A DNA stretch of 64,000 nucleotides from Peribolospora baueri. Lineage: Eukaryota. Location of the stretch: contig JAMDHS010000035.1 in assembly GCA_029717555.1 (NCBI GenBank), positions 62,001-126,000 on the forward strand, read 5' to 3'. A program made the translations under genes and the position numbers. Below, in pieces: positions 12,943 to 37,330 of this stretch. The notes below the pieces were generated by a model. It had not been told where the DNA came from and searched no databases. It was given only the letters and a program-made list of their open reading frames with translations. The first letter of the stretch is position 1; each line of letters begins with the position of its first letter.

Positions 12943-15900
12943 ATGAGCGCACCGTCAACGAGATCTACTTCCCGAGGGAGGAGCGAAGAACGGACGGGCG
13001 CTCCTCGAAGCCGCTCTTCTTCGCGCATTCCGGTGCCTTTGCCTTCCGCCTCCAGATCTTCTTCACCGGTCCCCATCTTAGTCCCTACCCCGTCAGGGTG
13101 CTCAGCGCGGGGCCGTTCCAGCGCCATCGGCGCAACGAGTACAAAGAGTACAAGACCTTTTCCAGAACGGAGGAGCATCGTACTCTCTAATGAATCCGTC
13201 CCTCCACCGCATCAGTCCTCCCCCACTCCGCCTCATCTTCGCCCCAACCCTATTCTCGTGCATTCCGGCGCCTCCTCAAGCTCACCGCCTTCCGCCGCCT
13301 GGCCGAGGTCGACCGGTTCGTATGGAGGTGGCCAGGTTCGACGGTCTCCGGTGCGCCACCCGCTGTCCACGGGGAGCGATGGCAGCTGGAACAACGTCGT
13401 CAGTCTTGATCTTGATCGTCGTGCGCCTTCAAGTACGCCTGCCGCTACCTCACCGAGGAGAGCCAGTAGCTCCGTCTCAGGCACTATGCGCGCTGGGGAC
13501 CTGCGGGCGCAGCAGCAGGCACATCGCGAAAAGCAGCTCGCACGCATCAGAGCAGCAGAGGAGCAGCAGCAACAGCAAGGTTCGCGCATTCCCACGCTTC
13601 AACGCTCTTCCGACCCAGGCTCGCAGCCCGGACCGTCTTCGTCCACCAACCGAAGGAGCTTTAGCTTGCCATCCGCTCTTATCCCTGGCGGTCAACCCAG
13701 GCAGCCCAGCAACACCACCCTGACGCTGCCCTTCTCGACCGTGCCGACTCGGCGTCCACACCATTCCGAAGCTTTCTCCGCTCCGTCTCCCTTTCCGAAT
13801 AAGCCCAGGCGTCAAGCTGTGCTGAGCCACGCCGTGCCTCGTTCATTTGTACGGGGGGTTCCCGTCCGTATCCCTCTTCATCAGGCGATGTCGCACGGCA
13901 GCTCGCGAGCATATCTCTCGTCCACGACCGACTCCATTTCTGCTCATCGGACTTCAGGGCGCTTACCAGAGATCCCGGACGTGAGCGAGCCTTCGAGCTC
14001 AAACAGCTCGCGAAGTGGCTCCAAGGACGGGGTTGAGGCCACTAAATCTTGCGATGATACTGCCGTCGGCTTCAATGACTTTGGCCTTGGACCTGTCCTC
14101 ACCCCCCCGTCGGAGAGCCCGCAGATGCGAGCGGAACTCGCAAAGATGGATTCTCCCGATCTCGGATCGACCGCAGCGAACCCGCCTGTTTCTACTCCGG
14201 TTCCTGACCCGAGTAGGGAAGGGAAGGTCAGCGAAGAGAAGCTCGATAGTCCCGAGACAGCAGCGCGCTCTCGGGTCATGGCGGGCGTCGAGGGCACGGG
14301 AGGAAGTGGCGAGGGTACGGGAGGAAGCGGAGAAGGCACGACCGTCGAGACGCTCGTCTCGGACTCTACCGTAGTTGGCGGCTCCGGCTCGCCTGAAGGA
14401 CGGGCCCGCCCTGATGATGCAGAGCCTCCGATTGAGTACAGTCCCGTACCCACCAGGGGGCGCACATCGATCGGAGCGCGCCTGGAGAACCTGGTCGCGA
14501 AGAGGAGCGAGGGCTCCCAAGGCAGTAGTCCAGAGTCGAGTGGATCTGGGTCAAGAGCCTTTTCCAGAGGCGAGAGTGGTCCTCAAATGGCGGCAATGGT
14601 CGGGCTGAGCGACACCGGAGCCGCGGCTGGAGAACCATCGATGACAACACAGCAAGCATCCTCTTCTTCGCCGCCGACTATCGAGAAGACGCAGCCAAGC
14701 AGCACGTTGGCAAGAGCGGAAGCCAGTGGGCTTGTTGCGTTTGCATCTGCGTCCCGATCGGAAAGAGGCCAGGAGTCGTCGGAGCTGGTACCAATTCATC
14801 TTGCGCTCCCTCAACCCGCCGCTCCCGTCTTGACGCTCACCCCGCCATCTGGAGATCTCAGCCCTACTTCATCTGCTGTAGGATCGGGGACGACAACGGC
14901 CGCTACCGCCTCGGCACGGGCGCAAGCCAGTGGGACGCAGCCCACTTTGGAACCTATCCGACTCGTCATGCCTTCTGTTTCGCCTCCGCCTAACGTCTCT
15001 TCGGTACCTCTCACTCCAAGTCAAGCCGTGCTTCAGGAAGCCCCAGACGTGAGCAGCCCTCATGCTTCGCGGCCTGCCCTTCCGTCTTTGCGACTGTATC
15101 TTCCTGGTTCTCCAGTGACCTCACAAACATCTCCTCATCAGATTGGCATTCACGAGCCGATTGACCCTTTAGCCGAGGCGGAAGCGGTGATCGCCCGCAT
15201 TGGGCAACCAGCTTCCTCCTCACTGCCTTATGCACCCTCGGAAGGGCAAGGACCTCAGTGCACCGGCGTCCCTTTGCTTCGACCTCCTTCTGGACAGAGT
15301 CAGCGCTCGGGCAGCCAACAACATCAGTCGACTTATCCCGCATGGAAGTCATCCAAGCCCGATGCTCAGTCTGCAGAGGTTTCTCCAGGGTCTCCGTCGC
15401 TCACTGGAGCAGCCATTGTGCCGGACAGGAACACCTTCGGACCAGGTGCTGGCGTCTTCTCCCAAGCTGCGGCGATGCTGCAGCGCTCTGGTAGCGAGAT
15501 CTCTCAGCAACCTAGTCGGCGCCTTTCCGGGATGCCCGCGTCTTTGCAGGTCCCGATGGCTCCTAGCAGTATCGCGAGTGCAAGCGTTGCTGGGAGGAGG
15601 GAGTCGATCGACAGTGCCACGACGATGCTCAACTCGCCTCATCAGCTCCTTTTTGGGTTGGACAGGCATACGATTCCGGAGGCCGATAAGATGGACGGAT
15701 TCGACTGTGGGCAGCAGGACGGGACGCGGGGAAAAGGAAAGGAGGTAGAGCGCAAGGGCAGCGGAGACAGCCAAAGCCGACTTTCACCCGTTCATGAGCA
15801 CCGGCTCGTCTCTGCTTTCGACTCAAGCGATGAGACCTCGTCATTGCATACCAGTGAGATGGCCGAGCCCGCGGGATCTTCGACCATTGCCTCTCTGGTT

Positions 15901-18900
15901 TCCGCGTTCACTTCTCGAGGTCGAGGGCGAAAACCACGCCATGAGCTCGCTCCGTCCTCTGGCCGTCGTCAATTGGAGCCTCTTTCTGACGCCGAAACAG
16001 CGATTATACCCATCGAAGGCGTCGGCGCGCTGGGAAAGAGGAGCAAAGACTCCGTCGCCGCTATCGTGGACAATTTTCTGCGGCGTTCAGCCTCGTTGAC
16101 TGTTGAGGCGCTCGAAAGGGGCCAGGGTCATCAAAAGAGGCACAGCCGCCGAGCCTCTTCCAGGCAAGGCTTCGAATGCGCCGTAGCTCTTGAAAGGGGC
16201 GAAGGGACAGAGGCTAGGAAAGCTCTCCAGGCTTTTGTCGCATCTCGAACTCGAGCGAACGGCGGGGACGGCGGAAGCAGTCTGGTCAGCGGTAATCATA
16301 TCGGGCCTGATGACAGTGCCTCGCGGCGGTACGCGTGGTTGGGCAAGTGGAGAAGCGACAGTCGTTCGAAGGAGGCGTCCGGTACCCAACCTCCCTCGGA
16401 TGACGAAGGTGACAGTTCGTCCGCGCGCACGGCCGTGGCCGAAGAAGATGACATGTCCTGGCTCCCCAAGAACAAGAGCACAGTATCCAAGGCGTGGCAG
16501 GTCTTTGTTTACTGCGCGTACGTTTGGGCCACCCAACTCTTGGCCTCAGGATATGTGAGTGTGTTCATCGGTTAGCACCTTCAGGGTTCCTCTGGAAACT
16601 CCTGTTTGACCGTTACATTTTCTCCAACGTCACAGACGTCCTCACTTGCCCCCATCCTTAAAGACGTCGGCGGGGATCCAGTGGCCGCAGCGCTGGGCGT
16701 CCAAGTCTTCGACGGTGCTCAAGGTATAGGGATGGTGCTTGCTCCCGCCTTCTCAGTCTATGGCCGTCGCCGGCTCTTCATGGCCTGCCTTTCTTTGCAG
16801 ATTACCACGGTCATGGTAACAGGTTTCAGCCGCGAAGTCTGGGTTCTCCTGCTCGGCCGCGCCCTCACTGGCTTGGCCACTGGAGGAACGATTATAGACT
16901 CCATTGCCATCGTGTCTGATCTTTTCGTAGGCTGGGGAGGTAGAACAATCGCCGCAGCTGCGTTGTTCCTCTCGCTGGCACTGGGCCAGTTGCTTGGTCC
17001 GCTTGCGGCGAGCATCGTCTTGTCTTTGCTGCCTTGGTAAGAAGTCACGGTAGCTCATGCCTTCGGTAGATTGTGCGCTTATTTCCAGATTTCCATTTTT
17101 GGAAATGTGCGACAGGCGCTGGCTGTATTGGATCTTCTTCATTGTGGCCTTTGCGACCCTCTTGATTTACGGCTTCACTTGTCCGGAGTCCGCTACTTTT
17201 CGGCTTCAAATGGACCAAGCTCGCGAACTTAGGAGGCTTGGCAGGCCAGTTGAAGAGAATTGGCCTACCTTGCACATATTTTTGGTTTTTCTCTGCCGCC
17301 CATATAGTGAGTGCCTTCGTCTGAAGCCATGCGTTTTCGACTCCTCGCATCGGTTTGATCTCACATGCCCAATTTGTCACGTTCATCCCCGCAGAGATGT
17401 TTTTCACGCATGCCGCATTGCCGTTGACAACTATATTTTGCGTGGCCCTTACAGTTGTGTTTGCGCTGACCATATCTGCGTTGTCCCAGTATCTGGTTAC
17501 AGGCGCGGGTCTGGACGAGGCGAGCGCGCAGATGGCAAGCACTATCTGCCTAGCAGGAGGAGCGGCGTTTGCCGGATTCGCGCTGACAGTGACACGTCAA
17601 GGTATCTGGACGCGACGAATTTCGGCAAAGGGAGGCAAGCGCGTCGACTACGTTCCAACAGAGGCGGACAAAAACGTCGAAGAACCGTGTCGCTGGGCGT
17701 TTGTCGGCGGCGTCATTTTCTGTGTTTGTGAGCGAGGAACCACGTTGTCTATGTGAGACGGCTACACACGGGACTGACGCTTTCGACCTGTTTACCACTC
17801 CTTTACAGCCTTATATACTCTCGCTCTGACCGCCAACCCGGCCTTCAGCTGGGTCTTCCCGCTGCTGGCGACTGTCGGTGTGGGAGGAGGCCTCATCATC
17901 GCCCTCCTGAGCTCGTTCATCTACCTTTTCGACATTTACGCACCAACGGAGCCTTACAGTCGAGACCGATGGCTAGAGGAGACGGCGGGCGTCCAAGGGA
18001 CCGATAAGTACACCGCCCGCTCTCCGGCCAGGGGAGGCCTCGAAGGAGCGTTCCAGGGACGCATGGAAGTCGTTGTTAGCGAGGCCAAGCTCGGTGAGGA
18101 GAGCATTGTGACCGGCCGGTGGGGTACTGAGTGGGCCATATCGGGCATAGCAGTGGCGTTGTCGAATGTGATCAACTGGGCGGTCATGGCCCCTGCTGCG
18201 ACTGAAAAAGGTGAGCAGTTCGAATCTTCCTCGTTCGTGTTTCGTCCAGCCTACGCCTTCTTCCAATAACGCGTCCCAACTCTTTTCTTTTCCATGCAGT
18301 CTACCTGCGAGCAAACTTCCAGCTGTTCACCGTCGTCTGCGCCTCGGTGGCCGTTCCCTTCCTGCTCGTTCCTCTCATCCTCGTCCGGACTGGCCCGAGC
18401 CTTCGCCGGTGGGCATGGGCCCGGGAGCATCGCGGGTACATGCCGGTGAAGTCTCGCTTCAGCACCGACAGCAGCAGTAGCAGCGATGCGACGATCCGGC
18501 CTGAATCCCTCCGCCTTGGCCGCAGAAAAGCTAGCGACCATGCCCATGGACGCCGAAAGGGTGGACTTGGCTCGCTGTTGGCTTCAAGAGGACGGAGGGA
18601 AGAAGATGACGGCTACGCGGGAGAATTGGCGGGTTTCGCAGTCGAACAACAGGAAGGCCGTCTAGGGCAAAAACTAGTAGGCTCCCTGCAAGGCCACAGG
18701 CCCGCCCCGCTCGACCTCCGAAACGAGCTTAGCAGGGATGGCTTTGCCCCGCCGCCCGAGAAAGACTATGATCCGGAGCGAACACTACGAGCGGGCGCGT
18801 CGTCGCGCGGCTTCCCCTCTCCGAGATCTCCATTCTATCCCATCGTGTTGGGCGGGCGCGATTTGGGCAAACAAGACACGCTTTTGAAGGAGAAGCAAGA

Positions 18901-19304: not shown

Positions 19305-20464
19305 TCATTTAAACATCCTCCTACCGGCGCCCACTCCAGCACCGACACCTCTTGCAGCCACCCTTCTCCCAATTCCACCCCCACTACCGCCCACGCCCGT
19401 TCCTACGCCGAAGCCAACACTTGCATCAGAGAGTGGTCCTACACCACCGCCGCCTCTCCCTCGTTGACGGTAGTAGATGCGATGTGCCTCGCGAAGATCT
19501 GCTGGTGTGAGCGGTCCGCTCCGGCCAGAGGCCGCTCGAACGGCACGAGCTTTGCAGAGAAAAGGGAACAAAGTCGGTATCGCCGATTAGAAGAGGCGTG
19601 GGCCGTTGAACAGACGGAGAGAAAAGGCGGACTCACCTCTCTCGACGATCTCCCCAATGAACACCTTTGCAACACCACGGACGACGAGCGTCACATTCTC
19701 ACTGACGGTCTGCGAGACGACGTGGTTGACGAGCTATAGAGAAAAGCAGGGAGAGCAGACCAGACGAAGCGTGGGACGCGAAGAGGAAGCAGCAAAAAAG
19801 GGCACGCGTCCGTAAAAGAACTCATACTCCAGACGCGCACAAGCGATTCCAACTTGCGAGAAGATAGCGACGCGGGGGCTCGCTTACCCGCCGGACGTTG
19901 GCTTTATTGAGCGCGCCTCTTCGATAGGCCTCATACCGCGCTTGCTGTTCCGGGGAGAAATGCTCAAAGAGGACTCTATAAAGCCAGGAAAAGGGGGGCA
20001 TATGAAGAGACGGTAATGGAGTCCGACCTCAGCGAAATGTCGGTCCAGATGACCGGCTGTGCTTTCTCCCATTTCCTTCTCGTTCACCGAGTAACGGCAA
20101 GGACAAGATGGAGACGGAGGAAAGTGAGCAAGGGATCAAACGCCGAGGTGGCTGCAACGCACCGCAAGTCCTCCTTAGCCTGTCTAGCGATTTTCTCTTG
20201 CGCGTCAAAGTCCTCGTCTCCCATCACCACGATTTCCTCCCCCTCCCCTTCAGGATCCCCTTCTGGTTCAGGGTCGTCCTCCCACCCGTCATCATCCCCT
20301 TGGCCTTGGCCTTGCTTCGCAGCCGCGCCCTTGCCTTCGTCCTTGCTCGAAACTTTGCCCTTGCCCTTCCCACCAGCAGGCGTACCGGATCCCGTCCCCT
20401 CCGTGCCCGGAGTTGCCACTGGCCCACCGGGAACGGGGGCGTCTTGAGCCCTCTTCTTCGCCAT
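19305..20464 (-). CDS. TAF11: TFIID subunit TAF11 (TAFII28-like histone fold); 4 exons
   Basis: Spliced exons read ...AKEDLRVLFEHFSPEQQARYEAYRRGALNKANVRR|LVNHVVSQTVSENVTLVVRGVAKVFIGEIVER|ARAV...GPLTPADLREAHRIY...GRRMFK, matching TAF11. Confidence 0.9.
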
Positions 20465-20791
20465 GGTCTTAGTACAGATGGAGTTTTCAGGAAGGCGGGA
20501 GAATGGTCTATGTATTGGATAACAGCAGCATGGAGGCTCGCTGCGGCGCTTATAAGGCGGATGTCACGTGCTCCTTCTGCACTACAAGACCCCCGTCTGT
20601 TCTCCTCCCCTGAAGAGCCCCAAATCAAAATTCAAGAATCGCCCAAATGCTCGCTGAGTATGGGGACATGGTTTTAATGGATGAGACGCGCTGAAAGTTC
20701 GAGGCCAAGGTCCATGTATCCTTCCACGCGGACAGAGCGACTGACAGGCCGGCTAACGGACACAAGGCAACGCGCAGTCGGTCCAACGTAT

Positions 20792-22876
20792 CTACGTCTC
20801 TCGCCAAATCTTGATAGTCTTGTCCGCACCTCCCGTGATAAGACGGCTCCCCGTCTTGTCGAAGGCTAGAAAGCACACGGTTCGAGACGAGGGAGATAAA
20901 CGGACCTGAATCAGCGACCGCGACGGACGGGCGAACCCCGGGAAAGGATCGAAAGAAGAAGGTTAAGATGGTTGACTACTCACTGGAGCAGAAGATGCCC
21001 GCCTCGGCGTCCAACGATCCGGGTTGTGGGATGTCCTCGGCAGACTGGAAGGGAGCGCCCGTCTTGTAGTCCCAGAAGCGCATCGTTCCATTGTCGCCTG
21101 GCGTCAAAAGGACAAAGCAAGCAAGGCCGTCCGTTAGCATCCGCCAACCGTCGCCCCAACTGGTGCCGACTTTGGCCGCAGCACGACAACTCACCGCCAG
21201 AGAAGAGCACTCCATCCTCATTCACGCTAATCGTATTGATGATGGCATCGTGCCCCGAAAAGTTGTGCACGAACATGCCCTCGGGGCATTTCCACTTCTT
21301 GATGTTGTTCCCGCCGGCGGAGCCCGTTGCGAAGCTGAACTCCGTCGGGTGGATGGCGAGCGAGCGGACCGATTTTTTGTGGTGCGTCAGCTGCGTCATC
21401 GTCTTTCCTGCTGCGAGGTCCCAAAGGCTATCCGTCCGGGCAAGATAATAACGAAGCATGTGAAGATTCGAGAAACAGCGATGATCAGCGGGAGCAACTT
21501 GATGTGCTCTCCAACACAGACCGACTCACCGAACTGTGCTGTCCATGCTCCCGGTGATGACCTGCGGATCGCTTTCCTGGCACTTCACGTCCGCAACGGT
21601 TGCAGTATGACCGGTGAGGACGTGAATCTGCGCCTTTGTCCGCATGTCCCATACTCGAGCGCACGCGTCACGTCCACAGGTGACGAGGACGTCTAAGGTC
21701 GGATGCAAGCTGTGGAGTGAAATCGCGTTCAATTGGAAGGCGTGATGCAAGTCAGCATTCAGGTTAGCGTCTTGCGACAGAGTGAATACTTCTCAGACGC
21801 AAAGGAGGAACAGAGGCACTCACTCCAAACCGTAAACGCCACTGAGGTGACCGTGGTAATGCCGAATGACCTTGTTCTGTTCGAGGTCCCAGCACTTCAC
21901 CATCTTGTCCTCCCCGCACGAGAACAAGTACGGATGTCGCGAGCTGACGGCCAGCCCTCGCACTGTAGAAATGTGGCCCGTTAGGGAAAGTTTGAGCTCC
22001 CCTGATGCGAGGTCCCAGATCTAGACGCAAGAGCAGAAATCGGTGAGTGTGATGACAAGGCGGGGAGGAGAACAATGGTCATTCATAGGTAATATGATCG
22101 ACCCACTTTGATGACGCGGTCGCCCGCTCCCGTTGCAAACCATTGGTTCCCAGGCTCGACAGCGACGGATCGCACCCAACCCAAATGACCCGAGATGACA
22201 CGCATGAGCTTCCAAGGGGCGTGATAGTCCGGTTTGACCTGGCGCTGCTCTTTTCGTCGAATGAGTGCCTGAGAAAGCGAACTGCCGCCGGCAGAAGAAC
22301 GGAAGCCACCTGCTGACCGCTCGTCTTTTCGTCGGATGAGAGCTTGAGAAGAAGAAGCATCGCTCTCCGCCGGTCGCGCGCCTCCTCCTGGCGGTCGAGA
22401 CGGTCCGACTTGACCTTGTTGCGCGAGCAATGCAGCAGGCAGATCTCGGAGATGCGAGTATTCGGCGGCAATTTTGGCGTTGAGGCGAGCTTTGACGCTG
22501 CGACACGGTGTGGATTGAGGGAAAGTCACAAGAAAATGTGCTCATGAGAAGGGGGGATCACCCTGAACGAACAGTAGCCCGAGAGCGGCTGGTGGCGGTA
22601 CTTCGCCGCTTCGCGACGGTGCCTCTTCCCATTGACCCTTTCGTTCATCAAAGCCCCAAGCGATCGCTCCTCTCACCTCTTCTCATCCTCCCCCTTTCCA
22701 GGCTCAGCGAACATTTCCCTTGCCCTCTTCACCGACCTGCGGATGAGCTCGTCCATGTTCGGCGCAGGCTGGGCCGTCTGTGAGCCATCCGCGGCTCCGG
22801 CCGCTTCCATCGACAGTGACGCCGTTGCTGGCGGCGCGCGGCCATTTGAAGGAGACGAAGGGGCGACGGCGGCCAT
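20792..22876 (-). CDS. PRP46: Pre-mRNA splicing factor Prp46/PLRG1 (WD40); multi-exon
   Basis: [87 protein letters not shown] and [20 protein letters not shown]. The stop at 20792 is inferred. Confidence 0.95.
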
Positions 22877-23321
22877 CGTGGCGATGTGATTGTTGGGATC
22901 GTTCGTCACGGAAGACTGGCGCTCCATTCATCCATCCATTCCATCCATACCAGCCGTCCATCGCTTCTCGACAGGCCGATCGCGACGGGGAGCGTGGGAA
23001 GCTGGCCGACTGCGGGAACAATGGGCCGCCTTCGGTGGTCGCGCGGACTGAAATCTATTAAAGCGCGCCTCGCGCGACGAGAAAATACGGCGTGTCGTCC
23101 TCCTCGTCCCTCCACCGACATCACCTGGCTTCAAGTCGACCCGCCAGTCAGTCAGCCGGATCGTATCCCCTTCTCACTCTCCTTCTCTCGCGCTCGCTCC
23201 GTAACCTGGCCTCGCCTGTACATATCCTTCGCGCCTGACGAGCACTCGTCCAGTCAGTCAGTCAGACGAGCAGAAACAGCAGCGGCGGCCGCGGCGGCAG
23301 CATACAGGCATTGCAGACGGG

Positions 23322-25363
23322 ATGGACGCCACAGAGGTCAAACGGTTGGGGAAAGACCTCACAAAGTCGGTCAATGATGGAAAGTACAAGGTTCGTCTCG
23401 CGTGCTGTCACCGCCGACGCGGTCGGGTGATGAATGGCGAGAGATTGGATAGCTAGATGGATGGATGGATAGATGGGCGCTCATCTTGCTGATGTGTATG
23501 CCTCGCACCGCTCATCTCAGGACGCTGGAGCTATCATGGAGACGTTAAAGAAGGGTGTGGTGGCAACGGAGGCTTTCTTGAGGGTGAGTGCGCTTATCTC
23601 ACTGATGGCCGTGACATGGCTCGGTTTGGCTCATTACTCCGGCTTACTCCCTCTTCCCTCTTTCCATCTTCTCTCTACGCCCTCATCGCATGGCTGTCCC
23701 AACAGGACACGAAGATTGGCATCACCGTTGGCAAGCTTCGCAAGCACGAATCGAGAACCGTTTCGGAGGCTGCCAAGGACCTTGTCAAAAAGTGGAGTTC
23801 GGAAGTGAAGAAGGCGCCGGCTAGTAAGAGCAAGGCGGACCATAAAACCGAACGGAATGGTGAGTGCTCAACGCTTTACGTGGATGGTGGGCTATGAGCT
23901 CTTCTTTTCCTGTCCGTGCGACTGCACCGAGGTTGGGATTCGGATCGCATTCACTCAGCCTCCGTCTCCTCACGCGTCGACTCTATAGGTGTTTCGCCTG
24001 CCACCGACTCCCCATCTACCTCCACACCTACCTCTCCAGTCAAAGGCGCCAGCGGTGCGGACGGATTCTCCGGCATTCTACCCGCTCCCATGAAGGACGG
24101 GAAGGTGGACTTCAACTACACCGGCGAGTCGATCCGTGACAGCTGCCTCAAGCTCATATTCCGGGCGCTCGAGCTTGCTGAAGGAACGGGTGAGTGCTCG
24201 GCTTGGCACATGTTTCGCCAGCTTACGGCCTTTTTTAGTCTCGGCGTCGAGGGATGGGATGGGAACCTTCCGGAACAATTGTCGCTCCACGTTTCGTGAT
24301 CCTTAAGGGTCGCGGGGCGTGGAGCGACAAATTGTTTCAGGAGGTCCAGGGCATACATATACCGTTGCGAGCTGTTTCTAACCCTCCCGCCCAATTTTCT
24401 TTTTCTTGCAACGGCTCTAGCAGAGGTAAACCTGCTCTTCAAGCGCGCGGTGGACATTGAAAAAGCCGTCCTCAAACTCAACAAAGAGGAGACCTCGGCG
24501 GCGTACAGGGGTAAGATGCGCAGCCTATATCTCAACCTTAAGGACAAGAGTAACCCGGAACTTCGGAAGAGGGTCATCTCTGGGGAAATCTCATCGATGA
24601 AGCTGGCTACCATGACGCCACAGGTGGGTCTTGAGGGAGGTTTGTTATACGCGATCGATTGGAGATTGTCAGCTGTCGAATGACGCCAGGACACTCGCAT
24701 TTTACCCTGCCCCCTCCTTTTCTCCATACTTTTCTTACGCCCATCGCCGCGGAAAACAGGAAATGGCGTCGGAAGAGCGGCGCCAAGAGGACAAAGAAAT
24801 CAAAATGCAGAACATGTTCAAGTCCGAGGGTGCCACACAGCAGCACGCCGAGACAGGCGCGTTCCGATGTGGGAGGTGCAAGCAGCGGAAAGTGAGTCGC
24901 TGGAGATGGTCTATTGTCCTGCGGGAAGGTGTGCTTTCTCCAGGACGTCACAGCCGCTAGACGACTAGACGAAGCAACGGCGAACGTCGTATATGCAATC
25001 TGACACCTCGTCTTTGGCCTCTTGTTGTTTTCTTTCCTCCGCCTTTTGTTTCCCAGTGCACGTACTTCCAGTTGCAGACTCGTTCAGCCGACGAGCCGAT
25101 GACGGTGAGGTTTCCTTCATAGGCGCGGCTGCTTTGTTCCTTTGTGTATGCGTCCTCGCGTCCTTGGTCGCTGACGTAGCTCTTGTCCTCATCGATCCTG
25201 CATCGTTGTCACCAGACCTTTATCACCTGTGTGAACTGTGGGAACAAGTGGAAGTGAGTGCCCTCTGTTTCCTTCCCTTTTGGTTCAATGTTCCCGTCTC
25301 CGTCCGTCGTCCTCCTGGGCTTCTGACCTAACCCTTCCTGTCTCGGTCGGCTCACAGAGATTG
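23322..25363 (+). CDS. DST1: Transcription elongation factor TFIIS; multi-exon
   Basis: N-terminal LR|DTKIGITVGKLRKH...AKDLVKKW; central YRGKMRSLYLNLKDKSNPELR; zinc ribbon CGRCKQRK...YFQLQTRSADEPMT|TFITCVNCGNKWK with the acidic DE hairpin intact. The last codons are uncertain: WK* if unspliced at ~25257, or WKD* via one more intron. Confidence 0.95.
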
Positions 25364-26176
25364 ATGGGGAGCGTGGCGCATGTCACGAATGCTTACGCGG
25401 CGAGATGGGCGCTCTCCCGGGAGGATGGACGACGGTGGTTGCAAGGATGATGGGGGACGGCGCGAGGTCGAGAGGCCGATCGATCGATTCGTTGGTTCGC
25501 ATTCCGTAATCGGCAGTGATAGCCATTGAACGTGTACACTATGTTAGTTGATTCCTTTTCCTTTACCTTCTCCCGCCTCTGGCCCGGCCCCTTGCTCGCC
25601 CTCCGGCAGCGGCAAGGAACTTATCTTGAGACATCTCCGGATTTGCGGGCCCGTGTGGGTTCGCATTGACCTAATCTGACCATCCGAGCAATGCGTCATC
25701 GCTGTTGCTATCTTGACTTGGTCCCGCCGCACGGTCCACGCGCCGCAGCCGCAAGCCGTCCCGCAACTATGATCAGTTCCACGTAGAATTGGTTTGGGGC
25801 TGTGCTGCGCTGCCGTCTCGAGACGCCCGCGTTGATGACGACTTGAGCGCGACGACGACGACGACCACCACCACCGACAACTCGTCGCCTCGCCTCTTTT
25901 TCAGTTGTGAACCTGCTCCTCAACCTCAGACCGCTCGGTGCTCCCACTTGCTTCTCTCCTCTTCTCTCGCCTGCGACGGCCCGGCTCTGCATCGCGTCGC
26001 CGCCCGTCGCGTGTGTCTCGGTGCCCGCTTCCACGTCGTCGCCTGCGCACGACGACCGACGGGACAGGCCGCGTCAGCGCCCCGCCATCGAACAGCCTTA
26101 GCCTTGCTCCTCCTCGCCGGGCCCTTTTCCCCTTCTTTTCTCCTCACCACCTCCTCCCCTCCACACACCGCCGACC

Positions 26177-26850
26177 ATGGCCTCCATCACGTTCAGAACC
26201 ACCCTCGACCGTCCCCTCCATTACGGTTCCTTCAGCTCCCGCTTGTCCTACTTCCCGGACGTTCCTTCATACTCCGACCTCATCGCCACCGTCCGCGAGC
26301 AATGGCGTCTTGGCAAGTCGACCAAAGTCCGCCTCGCCTGGGTCGACACAGGTGGCGACGAGGTCGCCGTTTCGAATCAGGACGACTTCGACGTCTACAT
26401 CACCATCAATGCAAACAGCTCATACAAAGACCATTCGAGATATCCGCCTCCTAGACTAAGCATCATTTGTGACGATTCTGCCGGCGACAGCGACTCTGCC
26501 ACGTCTTTCTCCACCTCTCGAAGGCCTAAATACTCATCTCCCATGAATGTTTTTTTCAAGACCACCCTCGACCGTCCCTTCAAAAATCGTATATTGAGGA
26601 CCTCTAACGGTCCCTATCAGACCCACATACATGGCTTCTATGCCTTCCCCAGTTACTCCGATCTCGTCGCCATCGTCCGCAAGCGGTGGCGTCTTGACCG
26701 GTCGACCGACTTCCGCTTCGTCTGGGTCGATGAGTTGGGTGACGAGGTCACCCTAGAGAATCAGGCTGACTTCGACATCTACGAGCGGATCGTCAGAAAT
26801 AAACCCATCTCCTCACCGTCCTCAACCTATTTGAGGATTCACGTCATTCA
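26177..26850 (+). repeat. Internal tandem duplication encoding the two PB1-like domains
   Basis: Shared DNA blocks: accaccctcgaccgtccc (26198 and 26561); tactccgacctcatcgccaccgtccgc versus tactccgatctcgtcgccatcgtccgc; tggcgtcttg; gacgaggtc; aatcagg...gacttcgac. Confidence 0.85.
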
Positions 26851-29800
26851 GGACGATCCCGCCGACGCTCCCGCTTCCACGTCCACTCCGTCCACCTCGC
26901 TTCTTCCAGCAGACGGCCTTGGCCATGCCTCCACCGTCTTGGCGGAACCCACCGGTGCCGCTCCCCCTCCCACGACCCTTGGCCTCGCCTCCGCCGTCTT
27001 GGCAAAAGCCGCTGGCCCGCGCCAGGGAGGAGGAAAGGAGAGCGCCGGCGATACTTTGGACATCTCGGCGTCGTGGTGGGACGACGACTTCGGCTCTGCC
27101 AAGTCGTCCTCGACCGTTCAGGAGCCTGTGGATGCGAATACTCCCGTTAGAGCCGCCGAAGTTGACGATCCGCCCGAGGTGTTGCCAGACCCGCCCGCCA
27201 ACGCGGCAGAAGGCTCCCAGCGACCTCGTCCCGGAACAGGCACCGGCATGTCCGGCAGCAGCGGACCGCAGGGACTTGGTAACCTTTTCGAGTCACTCCG
27301 TGGGAACATGGCCCGCGTCCAGGGCACCCTCAGCGACCTTCGGGACAACCTGAGCATCCGTCTCCTCCATCCGGACCCAGCTGGGGAACCGGAGCTATGG
27401 GACTCCGTTGATGCGATTGGAGAAGCGGCTCAAGACATCGTTTCCCAGGCTATCGACGCCTTAGGGTCTGTCAGCGCTGTCGAGGTGGAGATGGCAAGGT
27501 CGCTCTTCACTGATAACAAGGCTCGTTCTTCGCAGACGACGAGCGCGTCTCCTAGCACTCGGCAGGCCCCTTCTTGCTCCGACGTCGCCGACGACCTCGT
27601 CGAAAAGATTGCGCAGGCAGCCTCTGAGGCTTCTTCGGAGGCGGTCAGGAGCTTGTTTGAAAGCTTCCATGACGGCCTTCGTCTGACCGCCCCTTCGAAG
27701 AAGACTGACCCTACCGCTGTGCTTGTGGAGAAACCTGGCCCTAAGGTTGGCGGGACCTCGTTTGGCATCGCCACCGTAGAAGACGGCGAGGATTCCTGCG
27801 ACGGGGCACCCCCTCATAAGGCGCCTAAGACCAAGTCGGCCGAGACGGAGCATATGGAGACGAGGGAGGAAGCTATTCCGGATCGTGAGCCACCGACTGA
27901 CGACCCTTTCCGCTCCGGACGCCATCCCTCGACTCGTCCTCATTATCGCCACCGTCACGGGACTCCCTGGCTCCGCCGTCGTTCCACCACTCATGGGCCT
28001 CCTTTCGGAGGTCTGCGAATGGATTGGGAAAGAGGGCTTCGGCCGATGGGTCGAATGGCGGCGGGGCCATCTTTCCCGTTCCATTCAAGTCTGCACGGTA
28101 CTTGGGGACCTCCTCCGCGGCCCCACACCTTCGTTCCCCCGCCGCCGTGTTCTCCGCCCGCTCCTTCCGCTGCTCCTCCGGCGTCTCATCCTCCCGTCCC
28201 CGTAGCGCCGCCTCCGCCCGGTCCTCCACCTCTTAATTTCCGCTCCAACTTCTCATACGGTGATTTCGCCTGGACCACACCATCTCTGTTCGCGCCGCCT
28301 TTCCCTCGCGACCACTATTCCGTCCCGTCGTTCGACGGTTCCCCGTTCCCTTCCGGGCCGGACAAGCGTGGACCATCGCAGATGGCACCGGCCGAGGAGG
28401 CGGATGGCCCGGTGGACGAACGCCACGACGGGAACGACAGGATGGCCCGGCGCACTAGCGAAGACTCGTCGCTCGGCGGAGGTTATGTCAAGCTGAATGA
28501 CAGAGACGGAGAAGAGCAGGATGAAGATGTCGAGATGGCTATTGAGGGGGACAACCGCCAGTCGCCTCTTAGTAATACCGTCTTCGTCGGAGGCGCTCCC
28601 CTCGACGACGGGGACTCTCCGGCTGCGGAGCGTCTCAAGCAAGTCCGTGAGCAGGCCGAAGCCAACGTGGCTGCTCAGAGGGCGTTTACCGAGTTTGAGC
28701 GTGAAAATCGCCATGGGTCCAGCATGAGCAGGGAAGAAGGCGACCCTTTCAATCCCCTCCAGTTTGGTCGGGGCCGCGGCCACGGCCGCGGTCCCCGGCG
28801 TGGAGGGTGGCGTCGTGGTGGAAGACCCGCCGGAAGGGGCAGGGGCAGTGCTTGGCGTCCCAGACGTTGGAGCTGGGGCGACTTCGGAGGTGGCTTCGGT
28901 GACGAGGAGGAGGAGCATCATTTCTTCGGCACCGGTGCGGATCGGGATGGGGACGAGTCACTCGCGGATGCGGGCCAGCGCAGAGGCAATCCGTTGGCCG
29001 CTTCTCACCGCGGTCCTTCTCACCGCGGCCATCACCCGCAGCGGTATCACAACCACGGGCATGGGCATGGCAATCAGCCTCATAGCTCTGGATTCAAGGC
29101 AGGGGTTGGCCGCGGAGGAGCATTCGGGGACATGGGCGACTGGAGCAGACGCTTCGGCGATACGTTTGGCTTCCTTGGCGGCGACTCTGCTTCCGGAGGA
29201 TTGGGAAGCAGCCGCCATTTCGACCAGTCCGATCCCCTGGCTGGGTTCTTCGATCGCTGGTTCGGTCCTGACGGCGAAAGGGTGGGTAACTGGGGTCAGA
29301 CGAGGTGGAAAGACGAGGCGGCGAGCAGCAGCAGTGACGAGGAGATGAGTCGTGCTATTGGGGGCGACGAGGAGAAGGCTTCCCCTCCTGGATCGTTCCC
29401 CAGTGCTGAGAAGGTGGTCGATGAGTTCAAGGATGACAGCAGTAGGGTCAAGGAGAGAAAGCAGACGGAGGAGATAGACGCCAGTTTGTCGACAATCGCT
29501 CAGTCGCAGCTGGGACGGCCGTCCGACAAGACGCTCCCGCCATTCGATGAATTGAGGGCTGCGGTGCAGGCATCCGTAGACGCTGTCGCCACCACCACCA
29601 CCACCACCGAAGGTCCTGACGCTGTCAAACCGACCGGCGAAGGGAATAGTCACCGCGACGTTCCACAGGACTCCCGCGAGGCGTCCGACCAGTCCGACCA
29701 GCATCACTCGACGGCCGCTCACAGCACGCAGCCAGGCCCGAGCGCTTCCGTGTCCCCCGTCCGCGTTTGGATGGATTCGACGGGCCGCTACAGCTACCTC

Positions 29801-30607
29801 GCCTCCTACGTCCCCTCACGCGCGGCGGAAAATGCGGGTAAAGTGAGGCTCCGCAGGGCGGGAGGCGCCGACGACGCGGCCGATGTGTCGGAGCCGGGCC
29901 TCGGTCAGCGTCACTCGTCGGCTTCGAGCATCGGCGCGGCGCACAAGGGGCTTCTCATCGACGTGCCGCTCGAGAAGCTTTGTTTGGAGGATAGGGAGTG
30001 GGTGAGGAGGCAGAAGGAGGGCAAGGGAACGGAGGAGCAGGTCGCAGCCACGTCGGACGTCCCCGTTGGCGAGCGCCCAGCAGCGGGAACTCGCTACGCC
30101 GCCGCTCAGACGGAGAAGAACGATGACGCTCAGAAAGGCTCGGACGGCACGCAGGGGCACGGGAGTAGGAGGGGTGAAGGAACGGCGCCTTGGGCCCTTT
30201 TCGCCACTCCTACCAGCGCCCACCATTCGAACCGCCCGACGCCTCCTGCGCATTTGTCTCGGCAGGCAGCCTCGGATTACGGCCCGTCGGGTTCGCGAGG
30301 AACGACGACGACGAAGGAGCGACTGATGTCTCGGCTCGTCGAGATGGGCTTTGTCGATAGGCTTGGGGGCACCATCGATGTGGCGAGCGTGGTGTCGCAG
30401 GCGGTAGAGCGCACGAAAGGCAAAGGGAGGGAGAGCGATGGCGGGGTGGAGGAGGAGAGGCTCCTAGGGAGGCTCGTGGAGGAGCTCATGGGCATGGCGG
30501 CCGCGAGGGAGATGGCCGAGGTGTACGGGAGAGTGGGGAAGCAAGGGCCGAGCGTTGGGTATGCGAGGCGCGGCGGGGGTATGCCTGGCGAGTGGTGGCA
30601 TTCGTGA
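26177..30607 (+). CDS. Intronless 1,476 aa protein: two tandem PB1-like domains, long disordered Pro/RGG region, SHD1-like domain, C-terminal UBA-like segment
   Basis: Single long ORF. OPCA-like motifs WVDTGGDEVAVSNQDDF and WVDELGDEVTLENQADF. RVWMDSTGRYSYLASY...GKVRLRR...IDVPLEKLCLEDREWV resembles SLA1 homology domain 1. ERLMSRLVEMGF resembles a UBA MGF loop. Confidence 0.75.
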   Translation: MASITFRTTLDRPLHYGSFSSRLSYFPDVPSYSDLIATVREQWRLGKSTKVRLAWVDTGGDEVAVSNQDDFDVYITINANSSYKDHSRYPPPRLSIICDDSAGDSDSATSFSTSRRPKYSSPMNVFFKTTLDRPFKNRILRTSNGPYQTHIHGFYAFPSYSDLVAIVRKRWRLDRSTDFRFVWVDELGDEVTLENQADFDIYERIVRNKPISSPSSTYLRIHVIQDDPADAPASTSTPSTSLLPADGLGHASTVLAEPTGAAPPPTTLGLASAVLAKAAGPRQGGGKESAGDTLDISASWWDDDFGSAKSSSTVQEPVDANTPVRAAEVDDPPEVLPDPPANAAEGSQRPRPGTGTGMSGSSGPQGLGNLFESLRGNMARVQGTLSDLRDNLSIRLLHPDPAGEPELWDSVDAIGEAAQDIVSQAIDALGSVSAVEVEMARSLFTDNKARSSQTTSASPSTRQAPSCSDVADDLVEKIAQAASEASSEAVRSLFESFHDGLRLTAPSKKTDPTAVLVEKPGPKVGGTSFGIATVEDGEDSCDGAPPHKAPKTKSAETEHMETREEAIPDREPPTDDPFRSGRHPSTRPHYRHRHGTPWLRRRSTTHGPPFGGLRMDWERGLRPMGRMAAGPSFPFHSSLHGTWGPPPRPHTFVPPPPCSPPAPSAAPPASHPPVPVAPPPPGPPPLNFRSNFSYGDFAWTTPSLFAPPFPRDHYSVPSFDGSPFPSGPDKRGPSQMAPAEEADGPVDERHDGNDRMARRTSEDSSLGGGYVKLNDRDGEEQDEDVEMAIEGDNRQSPLSNTVFVGGAPLDDGDSPAAERLKQVREQAEANVAAQRAFTEFERENRHGSSMSREEGDPFNPLQFGRGRGHGRGPRRGGWRRGGRPAGRGRGSAWRPRRWSWGDFGGGFGDEEEEHHFFGTGADRDGDESLADAGQRRGNPLAASHRGPSHRGHHPQRYHNHGHGHGNQPHSSGFKAGVGRGGAFGDMGDWSRRFGDTFGFLGGDSASGGLGSSRHFDQSDPLAGFFDRWFGPDGERVGNWGQTRWKDEAASSSSDEEMSRAIGGDEEKASPPGSFPSAEKVVDEFKDDSSRVKERKQTEEIDASLSTIAQSQLGRPSDKTLPPFDELRAAVQASVDAVATTTTTTEGPDAVKPTGEGNSHRDVPQDSREASDQSDQHHSTAAHSTQPGPSASVSPVRVWMDSTGRYSYLASYVPSRAAENAGKVRLRRAGGADDAADVSEPGLGQRHSSASSIGAAHKGLLIDVPLEKLCLEDREWVRRQKEGKGTEEQVAATSDVPVGERPAAGTRYAAAQTEKNDDAQKGSDGTQGHGSRRGEGTAPWALFATPTSAHHSNRPTPPAHLSRQAASDYGPSGSRGTTTTKERLMSRLVEMGFVDRLGGTIDVASVVSQAVERTKGKGRESDGGVEEERLLGRLVEELMGMAAAREMAEVYGRVGKQGPSVGYARRGGGMPGEWWHS

Positions 30608-32022: not shown

Positions 32023-33791
32023 CTAGTGCCATGAACGGCGGACCGAGGGGCATGGTCATGGAGACGAGGATGTCGTCCACGCTATGAAAGAGGCAAAGGG
32101 TGGAGCAAAAAAAGGCACGGAATGCAATCAGCGCTCGCTAGCTCGTTCGCGAGCGGACAAACGCACGGACAGACAGACAGACAGCAAACAACTTACTCAC
32201 TGCGCCTCCGCGTCCAGGTCTTGGCATCCGTGTTGACGTGTCCGATGGCAATGTTCGCCACTTCGTCGACGTGGCCAAGCGTCAGCGCCGGCGTCGACTC
32301 GATCATCATCGCCTCGGCCCATCCCGGCGGCATGCCCGCGCCGAGACCGGACGGCATGTCAAAGGTGGCCTGAAGAGGCGACTGTGAAGGCGTTGGGAGG
32401 ATTGGTCCGCAGACGGACGACGACGACGACAAGTCCGGCAGAGCGCAAGGCAAGTCGAGGTGCGACGCGACGGCGGATTGTGGGAGCGCTTCTTGAGAAA
32501 CGTCGAGCGGACCAAAGGCGGCGGGAGAAGGAACGAGCTGGGCGGACAGGTCCGGCGTCGGAGGGCCGTGGGTGGTCGGGGACGTGTAAGCGGGAGCGTA
32601 ACTGCTGGTCGTCGACAGCGCTGGCATGTCTAGCCTGAGTGAGCCAATAGACTGACACGAGGAGGGGGTCGTGACAACGTCGTCGGCCGTGTGCCCACGT
32701 CCTCTCGAGCTCGGTACGGGACCGAAACAAAGGCCGCCGAACGTGGCTGTCGCCGGCGGCGCCGATGCTGGCCAACGTTGCGGTGTCGCGTCGAACGCTG
32801 AGACATGAACGGAGAGAGAGGCTGGAGTAAGGTGGCCGCCGTGTCGTCCGACGCCTCGAGTGGCCCACGTTTGCGTTTGAAAGCCTGACCCGTTCCCGCT
32901 TGACAAGCCGCCCGCCGTCATCGGCCTTGCGACGACCACCGATGACCTCGGCGGTTTCACGTCAGCGTTGACGAGGTTGAGGCGCTTGAGCTTCGAGGCA
33001 GAAAGGTCGCCAGAGTAGCGACAAATGAGGTTGTGCTTGGTGCATCTGCCACAACGCTCCTGTCGGTTGTCTACGCGCTCGCACCTGCGGGATTGGATCG
33101 CCGTCAAACCCGGGGGGAGGCGAGATGAGTGAGCGCCGGCGACGTTGACGGCAAGCGCTGAAGTAGCAAGCGACAGTCTAGAACGGCAGCGAGACTGGGT
33201 AGAGCCGGAATCGACGCTCACTTGACTTTATCGCCTCTGCAACGGTTACAGGCTCTCCTCAGCCTCGATTTTCGCGATGACGACGCTGGCGTCTCAGGCT
33301 CCGGGCCGTCGACGGTACGCTCGCCGTGGTCCCCATCGGCGTTGTCGTCTCGTCGCCAGCGCTTGGCCGGGATGGCGTCCGGGGGTTCGGAGGCGGAAGC
33401 GCGACGGAAGCGCGCTCGGTCATCGGTCGTGGAGTCCACGATCGACGGACGGCGGCGATGGGAAAGAGAATCTTGAGCATGAAGCCAGTGGGCGGGGTAA
33501 GAGGAACGGTTGTGATTGTCGTCGGATTCGGATTCGGATCCGGATCCGGATCTGGGCGAACAGCCGAGGCAGATACATGGTGTTTGGTGATTTGGACCGG
33601 GCATGCAGGTGCAGTTCCAAGACGTGTGTCTGGACGGAAGGTTGGGAGAGGGGGACATGGGACACTGGACTGGACCGGGAAAGGCAGCGGGTGAAGCTCG
33701 TCGAAGGGAGCGGCGAAGCAGGATCGGGACGGTGGACGGCACCGGGGAGAGGGTCCCTTTCTATATCTTTGACATCGGAGACCGAATCCAT
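32023..33791 (-). CDS. Zn(II)2Cys6 transcription factor without an obvious middle homology region; 3-4 exons, both ends uncertain
   Basis: RLRRACNRCRGDKVK|CERVDNRQERCGRCTKHNLICRY is joined across an intron (~33085-33221). A likely short first exon starts at ATG 33791. The C-terminus depends on the tandem donor GTGAGTAAGT at ~32200. Confidence 0.8.
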
Positions 33792-35054: not shown

Positions 35055-37166
35055 TCAGCCGACGCCCTCCGTGTCCGGAGGCCCCGCGGGCCTGTGCTGC
35101 CCGTCCTCGTCGCCTGGCGTCCGCGTCCGCGTCGAAAAGAGCGTTCCGGCGACGCTCGCCGCCGCAGCCGCGTCCGACGGCCCTTCTTCCCTCTCCGAAA
35201 CGCCCACCTCGTCTTCCGCCGTCGCGTCCGTCGCCTTCGTTGCACGATCACCTGCATCACTCCTCGTCACTGTCCCCACCTCCTCCACCGGCTCTACCGC
35301 CGCCGCCTCGGCCGCCGCCGTGTCCTCCGACATGCCCGAAAGCGACGGAGATACCGACCTTGGCCGAGAAGCAGAGCGCGACGGCGCCGGCGTGCGCTCA
35401 AGCCGGTACGCTGCATGAGAGCGTACTAGAGAGTGATAGTAGTGCTGGAGTAGTGCGCCGGGGCACTGTTATTTGTACGTGAAAAGCGGAACGAGCAATA
35501 GATGTGAGCAAGTCGGCCGGCTAGCCTTCGCAACGCTCGATCCAAAGACTCACCGTCAAGCGCCAATCTATGATCCTGCAAAACTCCTTCTCCAGCACGT
35601 TGAGCTCCGTCATCGAAATACCTCCCACGCGGGCGTAGTGACCTGGAAACATGGGGTGAAGGGGGGAAGCCAGCGAGAAGAGCGAGGACAGCACAAGTCA
35701 GTCCGACGTCCTGGTCCGAAAAGGCAAAGCGTAGCGTGACGTGACGTGGCTGACGCGCACCGCTGGCAGTGCCGTACGCCTCTGTGCTGACATGACCGCC
35801 AGGTCGATACACGTAGGAAATGACGAAACACATGCGACACACGGTAGGTAGATGCGACACGGTAGGTAGGACGTGCGAGGCGAGGCGGGCAGACAGAGTC
35901 ACCCATCCATCCATCCTGACGAGCCGCAGGCAGGATGGCTACCTGGACGTGCTCGTGGGGAAACGAAACGAACACTCACTGTTCGTCGAAAACGCATCGC
36001 AAAGGGCCTTGCTGGCCACCACGACGCTCACGCAGACAAATCGATGCACCGTGAGACCGCAAATCGTGAAACCCTCTAATCGCTCGCACACGCGATCGAT
36101 GTAGACGAGCAGGATAAGCAGGCACGACTTTTCAATGTTTGTGTATCGAGCGATGCGATGCAGGTAGGCGACGATGGAGATTGTCGGCGTCGCTCTTGAG
36201 TGGAAGCGGGTTAGGTTGGACGGGTGGAGGGGGAGGAGGTCGTTGTGTGCCACGAGACGGGACAGCATGTCGGCTAGAATGGCACCAGGTGGCGACGAAA
36301 GCAGGTGAGCGTCACGGACGAGCGGCTAACGCCTCCAATGATGTCGCCTACTCACCCACGAGGACGATGATGTCCTCTACCCTCGCATCTTCAAAGTTCC
36401 GAGGCATGACCGTCCTGTCATCCTTCTCTTCTCCCTCCGCCATCTCACCCTCCTCTTGCTCGACTCCGGCATCCGGATCTCTCGCTCCAGCCGCGTCATG
36501 GCGTGGAGACCGATTTGACCGAGAGTCGCCGGCTAGAGAACCTGCACGCTCGGTGTTTCCAGCGTCCTGTTGCGCCTGCAACAGCTCTGGCGTCGCCTTG
36601 GGTACGATTCGCGGCGAAGGGGGTGTCGGGACCAGTGAGGGTGGGGTTGAAACTCGTGGTGCTGCTGGAAATGTCGACGACAGACAAGCGGCGCCTCCTG
36701 AACCGGCCGTGAGACAGGGAGACGTGCGCGCCGTAGGACCGTTCTCCGCGTCCCCCATCGGTGGTGGCGATCCAGGCTGCCCGCCAGTTGGGGAGCTCCT
36801 CCTTCGCTTGAGCGCGCTGCGTGGGGCACCCGGGCTACCTGGTGGCGCGACAACGTCGGTGGTGCAAATCCCTGTGGAGCCGAGAACAGCATTCGCTGCC
36901 GTCGGTGTGCCTGGAAGAATCGGTCGAGCAGAGACATCCACAGGGCCCACCGGTTCCGGAGCCGGTGAAGAAGAGGAGGACGGGTCGGGGCCCCTACGAG
37001 ACGCGGGACTTCCACGAAAAGATGGCGTTCCCTGAGAGAAGGCGAGCGACGTTCGAGGAGAAGATGAAGGACCAGGACGCGGAGACTTGGAGTTGGACCT
37101 ACGAGGTGGGAAAGGGCTGGGAGAGAGAGATGGCGAGGAGGAAGGGGACATGGAAGTGTCCAGCAT
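35055..37166 (-). CDS. Pho80/PCL-family cyclin; 4 exons
   Basis: MLSRLVAHND...LTRFHSRATPTISIVAYLHRIARYTNIEKSCLLILLVYIDR...TVHRFVCVSVVVASKALCDAFSTN|HYARVGGISMTELNVLEKEFCRIIDWRLT|CPGALLQHYYHSLV is a Pho80/Nuc-1 regulator PREG-type cyclin box. Confidence 0.9.
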
Positions 37167-37330
37167 AGGGCGCCAGTTGCCGCCGGTGAATCCGGGCCAA
37201 AACGCGAGGCCAAAGGAGGGCCGATGCGGGGACGAGGTGCAAAAAGCGCCCAGGCGGTTGCTGGGTTACCCCTGCTTTCCCCGAGAGCGCCGCTGCTCAC
37301 GTCTGTGACGAATCTAGAAAGCCGGACTTC

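Follow-up and report, generated by a model that had tools for sequence, protein, structure and literature searches.

We analysed a window of 64,000 nucleotides of the Peribolospora baueri genome (assembly GCA_029717555.1, contig JAMDHS010000035.1, positions 62,001 to 126,000 of the forward strand), which contains a gene whose predicted product joins two N-terminal PB1 domains to a distant SHD1 domain. Positions below are those of the window. A single open reading frame runs from 26102 to 30607 (1501 codons without a stop), and its first ATG, at 26177 in the context gccgaccATGg, begins a predicted protein of 1476 amino acids. A simple splice-pattern scan of the frame gave no candidate introns, in a fungal genome of 22.7 Mb that is intron-rich. 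The reading frame is real and the predicted protein is mostly disordered. At the sensitivity of the genome search used, the gene is single-copy in its own genome. Both PB1 domains pass the Pfam gathering threshold (E 1.8e-11 for the whole protein), as does SHD1, so that the order PB1-PB1...SHD1 proposed by an earlier, sequence-only reading was borne out. No other Pfam family matches the protein at E≤10, the limit for all Pfam negatives on this protein given below; NCBIfam gave a weak match below its cut-off and nothing more, and Rfam gave no match in the window. The features of the gene, all on the plus strand, are as follows.

26177..30607, +, whole coding sequence, from the first ATG
26177..26470, +, PB1 domain a (PB1a), residues 1-98; Pfam 26.1 bits; R7 in strand 1; acidic D57-T-G-G-D61-E62...D69-D70
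26543..26854, +, PB1 domain b (PB1b), residues 123-226; Pfam 27.3 bits; own Met; K128; D185-E-L-G-D189-E190...D198
26916..27047, +, imperfect direct repeat in the linker (LGHASTVLA.../LGLASAVLA...), seen in the sequence
27269..27691, +, amphipathic helical region, residues 365-505, including ELWDSV (27392-27409); hydrophobic moments 0.49-0.61
28097..28366, +, proline-rich tract by composition, 34% Pro
28478..28495, +, GGYVKL, sole exposed match to the xLIR pattern, not above chance
28757..29311, +, RG/RGG-, His- and aromatic-rich low-complexity region by composition, residues 861-1045
29384..29401, +, PPGSFP, resembling MPGEWW; pattern chosen post hoc, a lead only
29753..30016, +, SHD1-type domain, residues 1193-1280; Pfam, in two stretches; distinct SHD1 clade
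29858-29941, +, 28-residue insertion in the SHD1 hairpin
30296..30511, +, three-helix bundle with LVEMGF after helix 1 (M1390-G-F1392); AlphaFold2 model, UBA-compatible, identity unproven
30581..30598, +, C-terminal MPGEWW motif; pattern chosen post hoc, a lead only

The PB1 scores listed are those of the two domains taken as separate pieces, against a gathering score of 23.6 bits (PF00564). Each domain has a basic residue in strand 1 (R7, K128) and an acidic DxxGDE...D motif, which agrees with the OPCA-like motifs previously noted in both. The two are 46% identical in amino acids and, as derived from the alignment score, approximately 78% identical in DNA over 130 columns. PB1b also has an initial Met of its own, so that a recent duplication copied the 5' part of the gene and left PB1b as a tandem duplicate of PB1a. 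The ATG of PB1b (26543) follows a C/T-rich run, and a shorter isoform with a single PB1 is possible. PB1a weakly matches the PB1 of PKC-zeta (E 0.43), and none of 864 candidates, which were longer proteins, was a relative of the PB1 pair at E≤0.01.

Very few relatives of the protein were recovered. A phmmer search with residues 277-1476 against 1.84 billion representatives returned one protein, P0002 (163 amino acids, E 4e-9), a gene call that holds SHD1 alone and has an insertion at the same hairpin as the window SHD1. A profile of the family SHD1 found one of 7999 candidates, CAD6975940.1 of the smut fungus Tilletia controversa (P0006; 590 amino acids, E 3.4e-6). This Tilletia protein begins with a PB1 domain (Pfam E 6.8e-4, below the cut-off), which lay outside the SHD1 query. 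Because it was found via SHD1 alone and yet has an N-terminal PB1, PB1...SHD1 appears to be an inherited architecture common to at least two fungi. The family as now defined consists of two full-length proteins and one fragment cluster. CAD6975940.1 and P0002-P0005 share with the window protein the order PB1, helix and divergent SHD1, the last with an LC[LV]EDRxW end and extra residues after strand 2; the helix of CAD6975940.1 weakly resembles residues 403-443 of the window protein (12 of 41 identical, BLAST E 1.4, shuffle P 0.03-0.04). In contrast to the window protein, CAD6975940.1 has one PB1, an acidic AIM-like motif (AIM, Atg8-interacting motif), no comparable RG tract and no helical tail. 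Around a core of PB1, helix and SHD1, the duplicate PB1, the RG tract and the tail look like lineage-specific additions or losses. The best match of the Tilletia PB1 in the Protein Data Bank (PDB) is the PB1 of Arabidopsis NBR1, a weak one (E 0.086); it aligns poorly to the window PB1s and was misaligned by MAFFT. A weak match of CAD6975940.1 to DUF7481 had no counterpart in the P. baueri genome or the controls.

With the whole protein as query, none of 7999 candidates was a relative at E≤0.01. The ESM Atlas gave two PB1 clusters of Basidiomycota and one Ascomycota 'UBA' cluster at 0.84, 0.82 and 0.80, which are below 0.9 and serve as leads only; together with the Tilletia relative they point to a basidiomycete. 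Two metagenome scans confirmed none of 52 stretches and two of 145, the latter both bacterial SHD1 proteins outside the PB1...SHD1 family; scans of prokaryote genomes confirmed 0 of 19, 0 of 12 and 1 of 94, this last a 20-residue match judged spurious, and a plasmid search for relatives found none. No publication joining PB1 and SHD1 was found in the literature searched, in which subscription journals are mostly uncovered; the single-species architectures of Figure S1 of PMC7051960 lie outside its scope and may bear on novelty. In that literature the PB1...SHD1 protein is an undescribed variant of PB1 adaptors, and the earlier view that the combination was uncharacterised held.

The SHD1 domain (PF03983) scores 36.3 bits on the piece and 26.9 on the whole protein (cut-off 23.7; E 4.9e-9). 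It is split by the insertion listed above, as had been read from the sequence, and its profile leads weakly to the structure 2HBP (E 0.53). SHD1 is present in all five planctomycete genomes searched (41 matches), and the 30 of these matches that have loci formed the bacterial comparison. Over 54 columns, the three family SHD1s have mean identities of 31-34% to the bacterial SHD1s and are 23-28% identical to that of the Sla1 encoded in the P. baueri genome; the figures for the window SHD1 are 33% and 28%. The P. baueri Sla1 SHD1 is itself 31% identical to the bacterial domains. In a tree that holds one Sla1 only and omits the loci L014 and L015, the three family SHD1s form one clade (support 98/94), and a joint clade of these with Sla1 was not rejected (approximately unbiased test, p-AU 0.38). 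A recent copying of the domain from Sla1, also considered, was rejected at 28% identity. These comparisons point to an SHD1 subfamily that is old and separate, its distance from Sla1 being no smaller than that from the planctomycete domains. It may have been acquired separately from that of Sla1, from a pool abundant in planctomycetes; with a p-AU of 0.38 horizontal transfer is not claimed. The G+C content at third codon positions is 0.82 in SHD1 and in the tail versus 0.58-0.77 elsewhere in the gene, which suggests that these two parts are older or more constrained. Among the bacterial loci, L014 (9824-13592) encodes two adjoining exported-type proteins with alike repeat bodies; the first begins with SHD1, and its two open frames are separated by an in-frame stop near 10967.

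Between the PB1 pair and SHD1 lies a long, mostly disordered body. Its linker repeat, absent from the Tandem Repeats Finder output, is expanded in-frame by 81 or 87 nucleotides in a related organism (organism B), and the helical region has no Pfam match. The RGG/His-rich region seen in the sequence-only reading contains 25% Gly, 26 Arg, 13 His and 11 RG. An acidic tryptophan cluster, SWWDDDF (27071-27091), follows the PB1 pair at about the position of the Tilletia AIM-like motif; it lacks a WxxL core, and organism B has Arg in place of W301. The motif [MLP]PGx[FWY] occurs twice in the window protein, in the Tilletia relative (P0006, 185) and in Ede1-like and Nbr1-like proteins, and not in Sla1, Cdc24, Tom1 or the piece of contig C220 described below; individual P values are 0.03-0.10, for a pattern picked after viewing the sequences.

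AlphaFold, run without an alignment, folds the C-terminal tail as helix-GF-helix-helix with a predicted local distance difference test score of 71-72. No Pfam family, UBA or other, and no PDB sequence matched it; Foldseek returned no match at E≤0.001 for either tail model, and the ESM Atlas no usable match for residues 1185-1476. In the VIA wide search with the trimmed model, generic helical matches lead (best Z 6.5). VIA also matched the tail, over the whole domain, to the N-terminal domain of CRAL-TRIO (Z 5.7) and to RuvA domain III (Z 5.0-5.2, root-mean-square deviation (rmsd) 2.4-2.5, 48-50 residues aligned); RuvA domain III, the CRAL-TRIO N-terminal domain and UBA have the same SCOP fold. 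No entry titled UBA is among the 50 best rows of either wide fold search, which does not exclude a UBA. Among 75 Foldseek-ranked chains, the UBA of Ubqln2 has 44 of its 45 residues aligned to the tail, with 23% identity, an rmsd of 2.7 and a Z of 3.1, and a profile of five UBA domains from the P. baueri genome gives the tail 5.6 bits, a score reached by none of 500 shuffles. A predicted complex with ubiquitin scored 0.23 against a mark of 0.34, which is evidence neither way. The models thus allow a UBA-like tail without proving it.

Contigs of organism B (two runs of one study) cover all 30 bins of the window comparison, with approximately 3% differences. Twelve of the 15 indels are listed: one, of 6 nucleotides, is in the open reading frame, and 11, of 1-7 nucleotides with none of 3 or 6, lie past the stop. 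In-frame indels within the frame, as against 10 of the 11 past the stop whose lengths are no multiple of three, argue that the reading frame is under selection. A search for RNA data sets with the gene returned none.

Known PB1 proteins provide no exact counterpart. NBR1 homologues are defined, in the portion of PMC9582228 available, by FW plus PB1 or ZZ. The window protein has PB1 twice and no FW (N_BRCA1_IG) in Pfam, and neither Pfam nor a ZZ search of the genome placed a ZZ in the protein or its locus, in keeping with the earlier statement that no ZZ or FW was visible. The window gene is not an NBR1 member. As in the Nbr1 proteins of Chaetomium thermophilum, Schizosaccharomyces pombe and Sordaria macrospora, AtNBR1 and yeast Atg19/Atg34, an N-terminal PB1, a helical segment and a disordered body make a single-chain adaptor layout, to which the C-terminal UBA-like bundle would be a further likeness; unlike them, it has two PB1s, an SHD1 barrel and no convincing AIM, and lacks FW and ZZ. 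The same source reports p62 as confined to metazoans. With p62/SQSTM1 the window protein shares an N-terminal PB1 with both charged faces, the lack of FW, and an MGF-bearing helical domain near the C-terminus, but it has no ZZ after PB1, is much longer, contains SHD1, and has candidate versions of the LC3-interacting region and UBA. The four fungal PB1 families of one survey (Mutte and Weijers 2020, PMC7051960, as far as its accessible text goes), Bem1, Cdc24, Mug70 and NoxR, combine SH3+PX, DH+PH, CBS or TPR with PB1; none of SH3, PX, DH, PH, CBS and TPR was found in the window protein by Pfam, and it fits none of the four. Sla1/Shd1 has the SHD1 domain (PF03983) in common with it, whereas the window protein has no SH3 match and its SHD1 is of a separate clade with hairpin insertions. 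The genome encodes Sla1 on contig C230, and a Cdc24 with a C-terminal PB1 and a CBS-PB1 protein on C643 and C66. Ede1, reportedly identified by Wilfling et al. in 2020 as the intrinsic autophagy receptor of endocytic protein deposits, offers a functional parallel in uniting an endocytic cargo-type binding domain, oligomerisation and a C-terminal UBA; it differs in its EH domains and coiled coil, and a separate Ede1-like UBA gene is present in the P. baueri genome, on C641. A weak own-genome match on C641 was rejected as low-complexity sequence antisense to that gene.

A search of the genome for FW gave a single match, which lies on contig C405 in an Nbr1-type gene (L010:3456-7166, minus strand) with ZZ exons upstream, FW, a C-terminal DSDDDFEIL AIM and no UBA seen. 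With this true candidate on C405, the window gene was rejected as the Nbr1 orthologue. The N-terminal exon of the C405 gene has no Pfam match; by eye it may contain a pair of degenerate PB1-like repeats that lack the acidic motif and could be a partner of the window PB1s. A second multi-ZZ gene, on C220 (L011:1724-5023), has a PB1-like N-terminal exon, of which the piece tested has no Pfam match, and no FW match. A ZZ-encoding stretch and the start of an intron on C550 (L013:2493-3041) and C405 (L010:5729-6535) have nearly identical translations (…KVNEGAPY.GV.CDAPSCGSPIRGWRFKCL.C.DYDLVSAFSRRVLDYTFVAVV); the C550 gene is otherwise unrelated to the Nbr1 gene, and the likeness suggests a recent copy of a gene segment.

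Our preferred reading, held tentatively and somewhat short of probable, is that the window protein is a cytosolic scaffold that oligomerises through PB1 and clusters cargo, working like p62/Nbr1 but belonging to a separate basidiomycete PB1...SHD1 family. Its domains are read directly from the protein, whereas oligomerisation, cargo and the ubiquitin and Atg8 links are what we infer from them. A PB1 that carries both charged surfaces is able to form homopolymers, with p62 and AtNBR1 as examples in the available part of PMC9582228. The PB1s of the window protein would bind head to tail, with each other or with another PB1 protein such as P. baueri Nbr1, to give oligomers, the tandem pair doubling the valency. 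The disordered Pro-, acidic- and RG-rich tracts could let such oligomers become condensates. The SHD1 barrel would take the cargo role of ZZ/FW, gripping a short hydrophobic cargo peptide, NPF-like or other, and the tail might bind ubiquitin weakly and gain avidity from the polymer. Clusters could then reach the vacuole by selective autophagy, more likely riding on Nbr1 than via a strong AIM of their own. In a stronger version of this proposal, which seems doubtful to us, fungi would have another class of receptor for selective autophagy beside Nbr1: a basidiomycete analogue of p62 that polymerises through PB1, reads cargo by SHD1 in place of ZZ/FW and possibly takes NPF-bearing endocytic cargo or stalled endocytic coats.

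A series of results weighs against the cargo-clustering scaffold. The best PDB matches of the PB1 pair are PB1 domains of atypical protein kinase C (aPKC; E 0.018-0.44) rather than those of p62/NBR1, and the presence of PB1 alone, according to the available part of PMC9582228, is no predictor of self-interaction. R7/K128 and the DxxGDE motifs are candidates for p62-type polymerising faces, yet G60D, E186K and E194Q in organism B alter the acidic motifs. The AIMs proposed in the sequence-only reading, near 28484 and at ELWDSV, were not confirmed: the xLIR pattern has two matches, one buried in PB1a and the other GGYVKL, versus 1.16 expected from 1000 shuffles (P=0.32), and YVKL has neither an acidic residue nor a serine in its core or the three preceding positions. 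ELWDSV was rejected as an AIM, as it has no xLIR match and is part of the amphipathic helix common to the Tilletia protein. In the latter, the acidic AIM-like DGEDGFEAVDVD follows PB1, but two xLIR matches versus 0.5 expected are not significant (P=0.088). For the tail, the Z of 3.1 to the Ubqln2 UBA is low and exceeded by generic helical bundles (up to 6.5), and true UBAs score 20-40 bits, each left out in turn, versus 5.6 for the tail, whose alignment is limited to helix 1 and MGF; the UBA-like segment read from RLVEMGF is thus compatible in its predicted three-helix fold, while its sequence likeness goes no further than that. Both CAD6975940.1 and P0002 end soon after SHD1 without a helical tail, and CAD6975940.1 as a query on the P. 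baueri genome did not return the PB1...SHD1 locus. That genome already has the separate C405 Nbr1-type gene with its textbook DDDFEIL AIM. The p62/NBR1-like receptor originally suggested is retained as a plausible mode of working, with the AIM-like motif of the Tilletia protein and the weak match of its PB1 to that of NBR1 on its side; it is weakened by AIMs at chance level, by a UBA that is unproven here and missing from the Tilletia protein, by the separate Nbr1-type gene and by the distance of this SHD1 from that of Sla1.

The pattern of substitution also weighs against it. Of the 152 differences from organism B, 40 are listed, 36 of these in codons 1-481. They comprise 27 non-synonymous and 9 synonymous changes over 1087 and 356 sites, a ratio of non-synonymous to synonymous rates (dN/dS) of 0.98 (95% confidence interval 0.45-2.4), and values ≤0.3 are rejected (P<0.001). 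The N-terminal third is either relaxed after duplication or diversifying, and selection on the PB1 faces may be of the diversifying kind and not relaxed. The protein could be a rapidly evolving member of an old PB1-SHD1 family, under weak constraint and with an N-terminus drifting after the PB1 duplication. Function would then reside in SHD1 alone, perhaps together with the tail, and the receptor layout would in part have arisen by coincidence. A dN/dS near 1, the 13 non-synonymous versus 2 synonymous differences listed for the PB1 pair, the variable number of linker repeats and the failure of both the PB1 pair and the whole protein to find relatives at E≤0.01 are consistent with such drift. 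However, two organisms retain the frame over 4.4 kb, all of the listed indels inside it being in-frame, both PB1s still score above the Pfam cut-offs, and a figure taken from 36 of the 40 listed differences would also be produced by diversifying selection. Very close relatives and disordered regions, moreover, are generally known to inflate dN/dS. We consider such drift unlikely.

The protein might instead be a cortical adaptor of endocytosis or polarity, its PB1s docking on Cdc24, Bem1 or NoxR, its SHD1 binding NPFxD membrane cargo and its tail reading ubiquitinated cargo, which would couple the recycling of cargo to the site of growth, independently of autophagy. Residues F507 and I531 of yeast Sla1 reportedly line the pocket (Mahadev et al. 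are said to have shown this in 2007), and their equivalents in the window protein are Y1205 and I1261. The genome encodes a Cdc24 with a C-terminal PB1, the closest PDB PB1s are those of aPKC, and Sla1 SHD1 binds NPFxD cargo in the available parts of PMC4626068 and PMC2199253. On the other side, the window protein has no SH3 or EH family in Pfam and no NPF motif; its SHD1 is less like that of Sla1 than, on average, it is like the 30 planctomycete domains; both relatives have His in place of F507; a 28-residue insertion interrupts the hairpin; and a true Sla1 exists elsewhere in the genome. Because this SHD1 is no near copy of that of Sla1 (23-28% identity in the family), NPFxD or endocytic cargo binding would not simply transfer to it. 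An endocytic adaptor seems to us quite unlikely.

TFG is known for a coiled-coil and low-complexity layout with a P/Q tail. A TFG-like or ribonucleoprotein-granule condensate scaffold, in which oligomers form through PB1 and helix, RNA binding or phase separation falls to the RG/His/aromatic tract, SHD1 and tail recruit partners and nothing is degraded, agrees with the order PB1, amphipathic helix, Pro-rich and RG-rich tracts and with the N-terminal PB1 described for TFG in the accessible text of PMC7051960, but is improbable, because nothing comparable to the RG tract is present in the Tilletia relative, which would place that tract outside the conserved core, and no RNA-binding domain appeared in the Pfam search.

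As an architecture common to two or more fungi, PB1...SHD1 would add one more to the four fungal PB1 families of the survey in PMC7051960, as far as its available text lists them, and to Nbr1/Atg19 as a fifth, and would be a eukaryotic SHD1 outside Sla1. Were delivery to the vacuole true, a receptor of the p62 type would have been built twice in fungi, the second with a different means of reading cargo. The family would also make it testable what SHD1 barrels bind beyond NPFxD, a point of interest for the numerous SHD1 proteins of bacteria. Should the protein be a drifting scaffold only, its value lies in a new domain architecture for annotation.

The gene is flanked by a TFIIS gene and a Zn2Cys6-type gene, and no functional link was seen between it and the four neighbouring genes listed here.

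20084-22889, -, WD40 gene, presumably Prp46/PLRG1-like, a name we take from its sequence
23473-25360, +, TFIIS
32193-33760, -, Zn2Cys6-type factor
35939-37265, -, Pho80-type cyclin

Another long frame in the window, at 12934-16572 on the plus strand (1213 codons), is Ser/Pro-rich and has no Pfam match at E≤0.1. A Gln/Pro-rich frame at 3055-4095 on the minus strand, for which Pfam gave no informative match, has NPF- and QQTG-type endocytic motifs and resembles the tail of epsin or AP180.

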